DNA of 64,000 nt from Octopus vulgaris. Lineage: Eukaryota. The position numbers and the translations under genes are program-made. Under the pieces are notes generated by a model that saw only the letters and a program-made list of their open reading frames with translations, was not told the origin of the DNA and did not search any database. The stretch lies in assembly GCA_951406725.2 (NCBI GenBank), contig OX597839.1, forward strand, positions 20,956,001 through 21,020,000, written 5' to 3'. Below are positions 388 through 55,806 of this stretch, piece by piece; position 1 is the first letter of the stretch; each line of letters begins with the position of its first letter.

Positions 388-1290
388 CTCCGCACATGTA
401 CAGTAGGGACAAACAGCGGCAGTGGTATAATCTTGGAAACACCACATGTCTTTTGGGTAAATGGGGTGGAGGTGCTAGGGTGTAGTTGTTGTTGTTGTTG
501 TTGTCTTGATAATTCTAGAATTTATTTGGTGTTTCAGCAATTAAAGATTGTACCACTCACTATTCTGAGAGACAGAAGAGGCAGAGAGAAGCGGGGGGTG
601 GGGCGCATGAGCGGGGGTGGTGGTGGTGGGGTGGAGAGCAGATTTAACCATTGTAAGGTGATTTATTGCAGCCTTTTATTCTAATCTAGATTATTACCAT
701 AACAGTAACAACAACAACAACAACGTGGGCCTCTCTGTTCCTCAGCACTACCACCACCACCACCACAACTATCGCTACTACCACCAACACCACCACAACT
801 ATCGCTACTACCACCAACACCACCACAACTATCGCTACTACCACCACCACCACCACAACTATCGCTACTACCACCAACACCACCACTATCGCTACTACCA
901 CAACTATCGCTACTACCACCACCACCACAACTATCGCTACTACCACCAATACCACCACTATCGCTACTACCACAACTATCGCTACTACCACCACCACCAT
1001 CACAGTGACTCTACCCCCCCCCCACCTTTCTTCCCATTGCCTTTCTACTGCTTCTCAGCACACACACACACACACACAACTGCCTCCCTCCTGCTCCACC
1101 ACCACCACCACCATCACCACCACCACCAGTATATTTTAGATAAACCATTTTTCTAGGGAAGCAAAACAAAAACAAAAGCTTGGAAGGTTGTGGAGGGGAG
1201 GGGGGGTAAAGCCACCCCACCCCACCCCAAGATGGGGAGAAGGGAGTTCAGGTGGAATAATACAGGATAATAAAATATAAATATTTGAGG
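388..1290 (+). repeat. Left copy of a long-range inverted non-coding module (partner 54985-55806)
   Basis: Seven collinear islands match the reverse complement of 54985-55806, e.g. 643-666 vs 55559-55582 (24/24) and 428-456 vs 55745-55773 (27/29). Confidence 0.9.
745..1000. repeat. Minisatellite (CACCACAACTATCGCTACTAC-based)
   Basis: About 10 imperfect units; explains the His/Val-rich pseudo-ORFs. Confidence 0.9.
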
Positions 1291-1609
1291 GGAGGGGCAG
1301 ATAAAAAAATGGCGCGGTGGGGGTGGGGGAATTCTTTCTATCTTTTTACTTTCTGTTTTTTCTATCTATTTTTTTTTCTTCATGCCTCTTCTGTCTCCTT
1401 TGCTTACCTTCTTCATCTCCTCCATTTCCTCCTCACCTGCTCTGTCATCTTTTTTTCTTCTTCCTTTTCCTGATTCTTCTCTCTTCTCCCTTTCCTTCCC
1501 CTCCTCCTCCTCCTCATCATCATTTTCTCCTTTTCTTTCTTCTCATTCTCTTTTTTCTTTTCTCATTCATTTTCATCTCCTCCTCCTACTACTACTCCCC
1601 CTCGTTCCA

Positions 1610-2650
1610 TTCCCCTTCTAAATACTACTCCCACTCATCCTCTTCCTCTTCTAACTACTACTCCCCCTCATCCTCTTCCTCTTCTAATTACTACTCATCC
1701 ACTTTCCCTTCTAACTACTACTCCCCCTCGTTATCTTCCACTACTACTCACTCTCGGTCTCTTCCTCTTCTAACTACTACTCCCCCTCATCCTCTTCGTC
1801 TTCTAACTACTACTCCCCCTCATCCTCTTCGTCTTCTAACTACTACTCCCCCTCATCCTCTTCGTCTTCTAAATACTACTCCCCCTCATCCTCTTCCTCT
1901 TCTAACTACTACTCCCCCTCATCCTCTTCCTCTTCTAACTACTACTCCCCCTCATCCTCTTCCTCTTCTAACTACTACTCCCCCTCATCCTCTTCCTCTT
2001 CTAATTACTACTCATCCACTTTCCCTTCTAACTACTACTCCCCCTCGTTATCTTCCACTACTACTCACTCTCGGTCTCTTCCTCTTCTAACTACTACTCC
2101 CCCTCATCCTCTTCGTCTTCTAACTACTACTCCCCCTCATCCTCTTCGTCTTCTAACTACTACTCCCCCTCATCCTCTTCGTCTTCTAAATACTACTCCC
2201 CCTCATCCTCTTCCTCTTCTAACTACTACTCCCCCTCATCCTCTTCCTCTTCTAACTACTACTCCCCCTCATCCTCTTCGTCTTCTAACTACTACTCCCC
2301 CTCATCCTCTTCGTCTTCTAACTACTACTCCCCCTCATCCTCTTCGTCTTCTAAATACTACTCCCCCTCATCCTCTTCCTCTTCTAACTACTACTCCCCC
2401 TCATCCTCTTCCTCTTCTAATTACTACTCATCCACTTCCTCTTCTAACTACTACTCCCCCTCGTTATCTTCCACTACTACTCACTCTCGGTCTCTTCCTC
2501 TTCTAACTACTACTCCCCCTCATCCCCTTCGTCTTCTAACTACTACTCCCCCTCATCCTCTTCGTCTTCTAACTACTACTCCCCCTCATCCCCTTCGTCT
2601 TCTAACTACTACTCCCCCTCATCCTCTTCGTCTTCTAACTACTCCTCTTC
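1610..2650. repeat. 33-bp pyrimidine-rich minisatellite with higher-order structure
   Basis: Unit AACTACTACTCCCCCTCATCCTCTTC(G/C)TCTTCT, about 30 copies. Confidence 0.95.
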
Positions 2651-3239
2651 CTCCTCGTTATCTTCCTCTCCCCCCCCCCGTATGACTGCTTCCTCTTCAC
2701 TTTCTTCCTCTTCACATCATCATCATCATCATCATTCCCATTGTTTGCATCATGATGGTGTGTAGTACTTCCTCCATTTTCCCTTTTGTTTTTTTTTGTA
2801 TATGTTCCTATGTTTTTATGATTTTTTTTTTGTTTTATTTATTGCGCCACCAATTTCCTGTGACATAGCTGTAAATCACCACCACCACCACCATCGCAAC
2901 CACCACCACCACCATCGCAACCACGCCCCTCCCCTGCCCTGTGTCTTCACCTAATATGTGTGTCATTAGATATGGCTTGAGGGAGGGATGTTGTCCATTA
3001 CACACACACATATATATACATATATATATATATATATATATATATATATGCACATAGAAAAGTGTGTGAGTGAGTGTATATGATGTATGTGTGTATGTAT
3101 GCATTACAGACCATCAATCATATTGATGTGTAGACATCTGGTCACAAAGAGATGCAGGCGGACAAACAGACAGATTACATGGAAGTTACCCTGGCGGCTC
3201 TTTTTATAGATGCAGACAAACATGCACACACACAGAATC

Positions 3240-3480
3240 TACATATATATGTGTGTGTATATATATATATATATATATATGTATATGTATATATATATAT
3301 ATATATATATATATATATATATGTATATATATATATATATATATATATATATATATATATATATATATATATATATATATATATATATATATATATATAT
3401 ATATATATATATATATATATATATATATATATATATATATATATATATATATATATATATATATATATATATATATATAA
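3240..3480. repeat. (TA)n microsatellite
   Basis: Long TA run; similar degenerate (TA/TG)n fields at ~6960-7230, 8050-8500, 31510-31910, 41170-41510, 44640-45000, 46850-47210 and 52640-53400. Confidence 0.97.
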
Positions 3481-3586
3481 AGGATAAGATCGATATTTAA
3501 ATACCAATCTTATTAGGTGGCCGGCATGGGAATAAAAAAGCCTCAAAGGTAATAATTATAATTAAAATTATAATTTAGGGTTATCT

Positions 3587-53407: not shown

Positions 53408-53792
53408 TCTCTCTCTATATAAACGGCAGTTTGTCTGTGCGTGTTTCTGTGTGTCTGTTTGCTTGTACCCTCACTCTGACCACGGCTTTCAACTGATTCT
53501 GATGAAACTTGACACACACATAGCCCAATGTCATAATTCAAAACTAACGCAGCGAAAATTTTGAAAAGTTCCCCCAGTTCTGAAAAAAATCGATAAATTC
53601 GACATGGGGTCGAGAATCAAAAAAATAAACCACAGACTGTCTAGGGGACGCAACTCAACCTTTTTTTACTCTCAAAAAAAAATTTACCATCATTTTTTTC
53701 TATTTTTTTGCTATTTTTTGGCTATAACTCTCTAAAAATGCTTTATAGTTATTTCCCTTACAAACCTGAGCAACGCCGGGCGATACTGCTAG
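53408..53792 (+). mobile_element. Non-autonomous Helitron-like element
   Basis: A|TC...CCTGAGCAACGCCGGGCGATACTGCTAG|T: TC start, subterminal hairpin, CTAG end, AT target, no TSD. Confidence 0.8.
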
Positions 53793-54034
53793 TGTATGTA
53801 TAAATGTGTGAGGTTGGATACACACACACACACACATATGTACGTATGCTTATATGCACACATACACCCTTTCACATAGTACCTAATGTCGGACATACTT
53901 TGGAGAGGGGGAGGCGAAAATGGATAAGGGTCAGGGGAGGGAGAAGCAGCGGGGTGGGGGGGCCCGGAGAATAAAGAACAAAATTTGATAGAAAAACAAA
54001 CAAAAAGAAAACCAGAGAATACAACATGGTGTCT

Positions 54035-54935
54035 GTATGACGAGGGTGATGGTGATGATGGGGAGGAGGAGGAGGAGGAGGAGGAGTAGGAGAAAGAGTA
54101 AAAGGATGAGGAGATGGAAGACGAGGATGAGGAGGGTGATGGTGATGATGGTGAGGAGGAAGGTTAGAAGGATGGAGATGATGACGAGGAGGAGGTGGAG
54201 GAGGAGGATGGTGGTGGTGATGACGATGAGGAGGAGGAGGAGAAAGAGGAGGAGAAAGAGTAAAAGGATGAGGAGATGGAAGACGAGGATGAGGAGGGTG
54301 ATGGTGGTGAGGAGGAAGGTTAGAAGGATGGAGATGATGACGAGGAGGAGGTGGAGGAGGAGGATGGTGGTGGTGATGACGAGGAGGAGGAGGAGAAAGA
54401 GTAAAAGGATGAGGAGATGGAAGACGAGGATGAGGAGGGCGATGGTGATGATGGTGAGGAGGGGGAAGGTTAGAAGGATGGAGATGATGACGAGGAGGAG
54501 GATGGTGGTGGTGGTGATGACGATGAGGAGGAGGAGGAGGAGAAAGAGAGTAACGATGGAGATAGTGATGAGGAGGATGGTGAATGGTGAGGCGATGGAG
54601 AAAGGTTAGAAGGATGGAGATGACGATGAAGAGGAGGATGGTGATGATGGGGAATGAAAGGAAGAAGATGGGGATGATGATGATGGTGAGGAGAATGAGG
54701 AGGAGGAGGAAAGAGAAGAAAATGAGGAAGAGAAGGGTGCTGATGATGCTGGAAACACGAGCAATGATAATGGTTGAGATGATGATGATGATGATGATGA
54801 TGACGATGATGATGATGATGATGATGACGATGATGATGATGATGATGATGACGATGATGATGATGACGATGATGACGATGATGATGATGATGATGATGAC
54901 GATGATGATGATGACGATGATGACGATGATGAAGA
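54035..54935. repeat. Purine-rich compound minisatellite followed by (GAT/GAC)n
   Basis: Repeated GGAGAAAAGAGTAAAAGGATGAGGAGATGGAAGACGAGGATG...GGTTAGAAGGATGGAGATG blocks. Confidence 0.93.
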
Positions 54936-54984
54936 AGGAGTGTAGAAGACAAAATGAAGAAAATTTCAATGACTGAAAGAGACT

Positions 54985-55806
54985 CCCAAATATTAATATT
55001 TTATTATCACGTCCTTATCCCCTTCCTCAAAAAATCCTTCCTTTCCCCCCTCGCCCACCTCACTAGAATATCCTAAATTTTTATTGTTTTTTTTCTTTTT
55101 CATATTTTTTTGTGTTCCTTATTTTTTGAAAAAAGATAGTTTTTATCTAAAATATGCTGCTGTCAATGGTGGCGAGGAGGGGGGCAGATGGTGGTTGCAC
55201 TGGTGTGGTGTGTTGGTTTTGGTGATGAGGGAGGCCTCGTCGGCGGTGATGAAGGCGATGACCATGATGATGGTGGTGGTGGCGGTGATGACAGTAACGG
55301 TGGTGGTGGTGGTGATGGTGACGTGGTGATGATGGCGATGATGATGATGATGATGGCGGTGGCTGCGGTGATGGTGATTGCTGATGGTGGTGGTGTGTTG
55401 GTTCGGGGTGATGACGAAGACGTCAACGGCAGAGATGCTGGAAGTGATGATGATGGTGGTGATGGTAAGCAGTGGAACCCACCCACCCGCTTCGTTGTTG
55501 CTGCTGTTGTTGTTGTTACTGTTATGGTAATAATCTAGATTAAGAATAAAATACTCCTATAAATCACCTTACAATGGTTAAAGCAGCTCCCTCCCCCCAC
55601 TCTCCCCCTTACACTCCTCCTCCTCCTCTTCTCTCTCTCTCACTCTCTTTCCCCCTCCCAGAATAATGGTACAATCTTTTAATTGCTGGACACCAAATAA
55701 ATTCTAGAATTATCCAGGACCCGCCACCCCATCCCCACCCCCAACCAAAAGACACGTGGTGTTTCTAAGATTACAGCCCCGTCATCGTCATCGTACATGT
55801 GTGGAG
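54985..55806 (-). repeat. Right copy of the long-range inverted non-coding module
   Basis: Reverse complement of the islands at 388-1290, in the same order. Confidence 0.9.

Follow-up and report, generated by a model that had tools for sequence, protein, structure and literature searches.

This study concerns a 64,000-nucleotide stretch of the Octopus vulgaris genome (assembly GCA_951406725.2, contig OX597839.1, positions 20,956,001 to 21,020,000 of the forward strand), referred to as a whole as the window. It carries a pair of inverted twin copies of one short module on either side of the visible part of Ror, a Wnt-pathway receptor gene. The twins are real, low in copy number and probably constrained; judged from their sequence, they are putative regulatory elements.

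In tblastn, residues 38-1063 of the ROR1-like protein P0001 (XP_014769992.1) map to 4937-40991, with residues 1-37 upstream of the window; the last coding exon is 100% identical to this protein over 546 residues. The domain order given by Pfam is kringle, Ig, Fz, kringle, kringle, transmembrane segment and tyrosine kinase, and no Ror match was found on the minus strand of the window. Because the exon matches start at 4937 with residue 38, copy 1 falls in the intron dividing the first kringle, where a TA run at about 3250-3480 separates it from the kringle exon. Copy 2 starts 13,991 nt past the stop, and the exon map thereby bears out the placement given in the initial annotation (a Ror intron and about 14 kb past the stop). 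Repeats detected within the window cover 0-9% of the sequence at 40-48 kb, compared with 20-78% over 4-40 kb. This scarcity indicates that 40995-47850 is likely a long Ror 3' untranslated region (UTR); copy 2 lies about 7 kb beyond it. The features are as follows, with identities between the copies untrimmed unless a range is given.

388-401, plus strand: copy 1 island 1, with an E-box-like core; 13/14 identical to 55793-55806, not significant alone.
428-456, plus strand: copy 1 island 2; 27/29 identical; a contig match from organism C begins at 428.
503-555, plus strand: copy 1 island 3, with a 12-bp palindrome at 511-522; 50/55 identical; the organism C match ends at 556.
643-666, plus strand: copy 1 island 4, with Sox-type and Pbx-Hox-type words; 24/24 identical; inside the matches from organisms C (637-691) and D (635-691).
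674-724, plus strand: copy 1 island 5, which runs into an AAC repeat and has a 12-bp palindrome at 682-693; 46/52 identical, 682-718 being the same in both copies.
725-1130, plus strand: CAC-rich field of copy 1, whose tandem units are copy-specific; weak alignment to copy 2.
1131-1144, plus strand: copy 1 island 6; 14/14 identical, E 0.64 alone.
1266-1288, plus strand: copy 1 island 7; 21/24 identical, 21/22 over 1266-1287.
1351-2800, plus strand: G-poor CT field of copy 1, containing a 33-nt tandem unit; a skew block.
4937-40994, plus strand: Ror coding exons, residues 38-1063 of P0001; 14 exon matches in tblastn, and Pfam.
40995-47850, plus strand: block nearly free of dispersed repeats, likely the long Ror 3' UTR.
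53901-54950, minus strand: copy 2 G-poor CT field (GA-rich on the plus strand) with other repeat units; a skew block.
54985-55008, minus strand: copy 2 island 7, pairing with copy 1 island 7.
55142-55155, minus strand: copy 2 island 6, pairing with copy 1 island 6.
55156-55504, minus strand: copy 2 CAC/CAT-rich field, counterpart of the copy 1 CAC field.
55505-55582, minus strand: copy 2 islands 5 and 4 with a 7-nt spacer; 93.6% identity over 78 columns.
55667-55720, minus strand: copy 2 island 3, pairing with copy 1 island 3.
55745-55773, minus strand: copy 2 island 2, pairing with copy 1 island 2.
55793-55806, minus strand: copy 2 island 1, pairing with copy 1 island 1.

All seven island pairs described in the initial annotation were recovered at their positions, including the fully identical 24-nt pair and the 27/29 pair; they are collinear and in reverse complement, with the arms 55 kb apart. 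After trimming of islands 5 and 7 (to 674-718 and 1266-1287), 194 of 204 columns are identical (95%), the remainder being 6 substitutions and 4 gap columns, and the longest exact runs between the copies measure 24, 24 and 37 nt. BLAST with the low-complexity filter gave E values of 9.9e-20 for 636-706 and 3.9e-12 for 505-571, and an inverted 24-mer match has a chance expectation of 5e-5 in 64 kb. Taken singly, neither of the 14-nt islands (1 and 6) reaches significance. Three weak extra matches (366-378, 558-570 and 737-760) also fit the same diagonal; an eighth match may exist near 2930-2975/53880-53940, but it is weak, its score being reached by 10 of 200 shuffles. Two other candidate pairs, 3113-3144/52604-52635 and 5192-5283/53016-53106, were rejected as they are mutually non-collinear and look like repeat fragments. 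With up to 25% mismatch allowed, the window showed no third copy of islands 2, 3, 4, 7 or the core of island 5. The islands are 73% AT.

The spacers between the islands behave differently. Their lengths in copy 1 and copy 2 are 26/19, 46/24, 87/84, 7/7, 412/350 and 121/133 nt. Four of them align no better than block shuffles: among 200 shuffles, the spacer score was reached by 200 for 402-427, 28 for 457-502, 33 for 556-642 and 55 for 1145-1265, and the 7-nt gap is too short for the test. The CAC field between islands 5 and 6 aligns weakly, with a local score of 56 against a shuffle mean of 32 that 0 of 60 shuffles reached; for the CT fields, 5 of 60 shuffles reached the alignment score. Both arms follow a common order of fields (C-run, G-rich, GA-rich, AAC, CAC, A-rich, CT), and 300-nt windows with at least 35% GC and a GC skew of at least 0.7 occur in the 64 kb only at 701-1150, 1351-2800 and, mirrored, 53901-54950. 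This agrees with the proposal that the spacers keep a similar composition while carrying different repeat units. The twin unit is larger than its islands, spanning about 300-2800 and 53900-55890 (2-3 kb each).

The copy number of the module was assessed in sequencing runs. Words of 380-760 are contained in 12 of 24 listed runs, under four organism labels, and contigs from four of the 12 were aligned to 1-735 at 80% likeness. Contigs are evidence of presence; the gaps in organism D at 201-325 and 401-575, and the lack of copy-2-type pieces in organisms C and D, were not used as evidence. Run X2 (organism A) bears the species label of the window, is genome-sized, and may be the source of the assembly; about 80% of it was read and 15 contigs were aligned. 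Only two X2 contigs lie over islands 4-5: the first shows no difference from copy 1, and the second has all six differences of copy 2. The depth of 78.0 in the bin 651-675 is the sum of 48.2 (306-691, 0 substitutions) and 29.8 (636-682, six substitutions), and copy 2 differs from copy 1 at the same number of positions in 636-682. A further short island-3 piece visible in the X2 depths was taken for copy 2. Because the repeat pieces at 33-71 and 140-178 attracted extra X2 contigs at 82-87% identity, diverged copies of about 39 nt would be detectable in this run. Both copies are present in X2 contigs, and a high-copy transposon family is unlikely; the many dispersed copies of a short interspersed nuclear element (SINE), a miniature inverted-repeat transposable element (MITE) or a Helentron appeared neither in the window search nor in the contig counts. 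The low copy number holds for the part of X2 that was read; further, more diverged copies may exist. A metagenome scan with the island-5 word gave 0 loci, and with the island-4 word one locus (L001, 1231-1252); its exact 22-nt match to island 4 was dismissed as chance since it has no neighbouring island.

Matches under other species labels were compared for copy 1 over 1-691 in two labels, C and D, and the comparison carries no implication of conservation in squid or cuttlefish. An organism C contig (run X11) matches 428-556 with 4 substitutions and 7 gap letters, leaving 22 and 29 end letters unmatched. This match opens exactly where island 2 does and runs a single base past island 3; island borders defined by the paralogue alone thus recur between species. 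A second organism C contig matches 637-691 with 2 substitutions, preceded by 109 dissimilar G/A-rich letters, and an organism D contig (run X12) matches 635-691, also with 2 substitutions; both stop at 691, where the aligner stopped. Copy-1-type islands in C and D are 96-97% identical to those of the window, with four islands (2-5) covered in all. In both organisms the 7-nt gap that separates islands 4 and 5 has its copy-1 form, so the inverted duplication likely predates the split of C and D from the species of the window. We likewise infer from sequence that the twin may be ancient. In the organism C flank at 140-254, 13 substitutions were counted in about 112 nt, compared with 6 in 184 in the island pieces (Fisher p 0.006).

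The module was also examined for coding and RNA content. None of 110 open frames of at least 45 residues in 1-4.9 and 41-64 kb had a Pfam match above the cut-off, two matches falling below it. Open frames over the CAC fields were discarded as low-complexity; they reach island 6 in differing frames between the copies. Rfam gave 0 matches at the gathering score in the window and 0 at E<=1 for 300-1400, and six weak matches to archaeal C/D snoRNAs, located on TGATGA repeats at 54900-55900, were rejected for lying far below the gathering score. No fold common to both copies was found (z 0.06 to 1.07 for island pairs; 1.7 and 2.7 for the whole of copy 2). A lone low z of -4.6, on the minus strand of copy 1, comes from a GTT/AAC repeat pair missing in copy 2, and a complementary stretch between copy 1 islands 2 and 3 is broken in copy 2. 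The two copies accordingly share no stable fold of the structured RNA or microRNA precursor kind. By Pfam, Rfam, folding and frames, the twins are non-coding, as originally described, and belong to no known RNA family.

Taken together, these data somewhat favor a locally duplicated cis-regulatory module under selection, in which the islands would be putative protein-binding sites and the spacers free to drift. An old local inverted duplication would have copied the module to the other side of the Ror body, and purifying selection would then keep the islands as clusters of transcription-factor binding sites. The spacers would merely hold distance, being rewritten by repeat slippage while their rough length is kept; helical phase would be preserved by the constant 7-nt distance from island 4 to island 5. 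Ror, or a neighbor outside the window, may be served by the copies as partly redundant (shadow) enhancers, for which orientation would be irrelevant. Two perfect 12-bp palindromes (511-522 and 682-693; p 0.002) share a TCTAGA core, and such palindromes would suit dimeric binders; WWTCTAGAWW, a pattern picked after sighting, has four sites in 64 kb, all four in the twins. One palindrome is presumably an inverted pair of TAATC half-sites, and the other has what we take to be a heat-shock-element-like TTCTAGAA core. Marginal among the 14 patterns examined against 5000 dinucleotide shuffles of the islands were TAATC (p 0.025), TGATTTAT (p 0.037) and TTCNNGAA (p 0.039). [quoted passage not shown] In a squid, deletion of an intronic conserved region altered gene expression (PMC13652810).

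Several observations weigh against this interpretation. The motif words named in the initial annotation are present in the islands, but they are not enriched over the shuffles: TAAT occurs 7 times with 6.35 expected (p 0.45), and CATTGT (p 0.20) and TGATNNAT (p 0.26) are no more frequent than expected, nor are GATA, E-box, Fox, Runx and T-box words. In the published Pbx-Hox/MEIS syntax, TGATNNATKR stands within 100 bp of CTGTCA (PMC4489388); here TGATNNATKR is confined to copy 1, and no MEIS word lies within about 120 nt in either copy. No paralogous gene pair is in view beside the copies, and the frames of 41-64 kb and 1-4.9 kb gave no Pfam match above the cut-off. The cross-species assessment of constraint covers copy 1 over 1-691, and its flank baseline in organism C has a contig depth of 136 against 13-22, so that it may be a repeat rather than an orthologue. 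Among squid conserved non-coding elements (CNEs), 12 of 1187 overlap peaks in ATAC, a transposase-based chromatin accessibility assay (PMC9023564). The islands were selected for identity beforehand, and up to 6 substitutions in 200 would be expected with p 0.12 at a neutral divergence of 5%. Finally, the spacers are mostly fast-mutating G-runs and short repeats, and the same borders could arise without selection in paralogues and orthologues alike.

These last points lead to the main rival of an enhancer pair, that fast-mutating spacers lie in a barely constrained old duplicate. The twins would then be a neutral inverted segmental duplicate, or functional in copy 1 only, with the patchiness produced by spacers that mutate far faster; we regard this as a serious but clearly less probable account. 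The island divergence of 3% fits a neutral divergence of 5%, spacer lengths stay near each other as they would after limited time, and the mostly low-complexity spacers differ even between copy 1 and the organism C match. On the other hand, high-complexity gaps changed too (402-427 is unalignable, and 4/7 positions at 667-673 and 2/3 at 640-642 differ), and these adjoin the exact runs of 24, 24 and 37 nt. Four of the six substitutions in 635-718 fall inside the one 7-nt gap (p 0.011). At a neutral divergence of 10%, up to 6 substitutions in 200 has p 1.5e-4. Because C and D are nearer to copy 1 than copy 2 is, copy 2 has been exposed to decay for at least as long as C and D have diverged from copy 1. 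The crowding of substitutions in the 7-nt gap, together with the unalignable spacers, favors constraint, and the choice between constraint and mutability hinges on the neutral distance. The initial reading of selection is partly supported, insofar as the patchy conservation recurs across species labels at the same borders; it had left the faster mutation of low-complexity spacers unweighed.

Three further explanations appear improbable. Old repeat families have been co-opted in vertebrates, as with LF-SINE and AmnSINE1. The twins could come from an old repeat or transposon family, dispersed and perhaps co-opted, whose other copies are too diverged to detect. The window is rich in short dispersed repeats, contigs show presence rather than absence, and about 20% of X2 was unread, but this idea has little in its favor when X2 had two contigs on islands 4-5, X11 and X12 had a single one apiece, and words of 380-760 occur in 12 runs in all. 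Neither a tRNA-like nor another RNA family match reached the gathering score, the alignment of the copies shows no terminal repeats, and two copies 55 kb apart suit local duplication. A function at the RNA level is the least probable; the twins would then act as paired non-coding transcripts, as splicing elements, or through a long-range duplex joining the intron copy to a read-through transcript. The copies would be complementary on plus-strand read-through RNA, and run X9, whose RNA status is guessed, has an intronic 174-nt contig at 357-535; none of the runs containing words of 380-760 is listed as RNA, which argues neither way. Nevertheless, an intron is normally spliced before 55 kb more is transcribed, copy 2 lies well past the presumed 3' UTR, a splicing role cannot account for the downstream copy, and the lack of a shared fold leaves the RNA duplex suggested at the outset without support. 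By pairing, the six substitutions comprise 3 G-U on the plus strand, 1 on the minus strand and 2 on neither, too few to inform.

Matched architectural elements are also doubtful. Here the same proteins would bind and pair the twins, closing a 55-kb loop over the Ror body and 3' end, in line with the inverted, bracketing geometry and the mirrored skewed fields. It is equally doubtful that the twins recognize each other through palindromic footprints and mirrored G-poor fields, kept in composition and length rather than sequence, and so fold the Ror body into such a loop. Inverted duplication alone yields the bracketing geometry, and since copy 1 is inside the gene, the Ror promoter and first exons lie outside the bracket. 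A loose pattern found no CTCF-like core in the twins, and GAGAG occurs at 3.4 and 4.0 per kb in the copies against 2.1 in the window, a modest excess of under twice the window rate; the loop or tether anchors first proposed thus gain no support. Cephalopod loop anchors are enriched in CNEs and GA/CA-rich low-complexity motifs (PMC13652810), which speaks for an architectural pair, but the loops in that study, mapped at 50-100 kb resolution with megabase medians, are too coarse for a 55-kb pair, and the motif signal is ascribed there to repeats.

The twins resemble several known systems in part. Drosophila tethering elements and paired insulators are defined by focal contacts and by GAF or insulator binding; like the twins, two such elements bracket a locus with GA-rich DNA nearby, but they are not sequence duplicates, whereas the twins are, and the twins are known from sequence alone. 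Shadow enhancers are defined by overlapping activity, usually without sequence homology. They and the tandem-duplicated CNEs of the amphioxus Irx-Sowah block would resemble the twins as redundant modules at one locus and through local CNE duplication; the Irx-Sowah copies follow duplicated Irx genes, whereas only one Ror is in view here. Names of Irx-Sowah CNEs are listed in PMC5010895.

Closer parallels come from CNEs of vertebrates and cephalopods. Vertebrate duplicated CNEs act as enhancers (PMC2781166) and share with the twins the features of low-copy non-coding paralogues, conserved cores, cross-species matches and a nearby developmental signaling gene. They differ in lying beside paralogous genes and being mostly of genome-duplication age, whereas the twins flank one gene, 55 kb apart and inverted, with the core split into islands of 14-53 nt by rewritten simple repeats. 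The twins would work like a duplicated CNE without being a strict member of the class, as no paralogous gene pair is in view and the cross-species baseline is not firm. Cephalopod CNE sets (PMC9023564, PMC13652810) likewise contain intronic and distal conserved non-coding sequence in coleoids, proposed to be regulatory; they need blocks of 50-100 bp after repeat masking (PMC9023564), longer than most twin islands, and within-genome twins are not their subject in the text at hand. Ror as a gene is absent from the main text and readable supplements of PMC13652810, where the supplement matches listed (2/12) are a motif name. A word search of open-licence literature found no description of the twin element, which does not imply that it is unpublished.

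Cephalopod enhancers are hard to find in repeat-filled genomes when CNE calls depend on such blocks after masking. From a single genome, the twin pair yields candidate footprints at base level, among them two unusual palindromes, and it presents reporter and deletion studies at Ror with a target in two copies. Whether simple-repeat spacers are kept for their length or for their composition could also be tested cleanly here. Under the neutral alternative, the twins would be only a record of the speed at which octopus low-complexity DNA turns over; if a loop formed by mutual recognition were true, they would be the first case in cephalopods of twins fragmented by repeats, a class that standard CNE pipelines mask out.

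The locus has other features of its own. Ror has three kringles here, as in P0003 (91% identical in the last exon), and one in Haliotis and Aplysia. An intron interrupts each of the three at one and the same position, and it is the intron of the extra N-terminal kringle that houses copy 1; a word search of open-licence literature for Ror, kringle and cephalopod together found no paper. A 15-residue exon match of P0001 at 32339-32383, missing from P0003, is possibly alternative. Long near-perfect MITE-like hairpins occur in the Ror introns at 3587-3872, 5078-5224, 8693-8961 and 33080-33439. A tandem array of about seven 168-nt units with 97-99% identity occupies 34835-36042, with inverted, more diverged units at about 38.8-39.2 kb (38788-39200). 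The block at 40995-47850, about 6.9 kb at 27% GC, holds a direct duplication (43770-43831 / 46038-46099) at 92%. Beyond copy 2 lies a young inverted pair of one element (56151-56649 and 63299-63800, 97-98% identity). The observed/expected CpG ratio is 0.87-0.90 at 55900-64000, whereas the Ror body and the two arms have 0.28-0.61; unmethylated DNA past copy 2 would be consistent with this.

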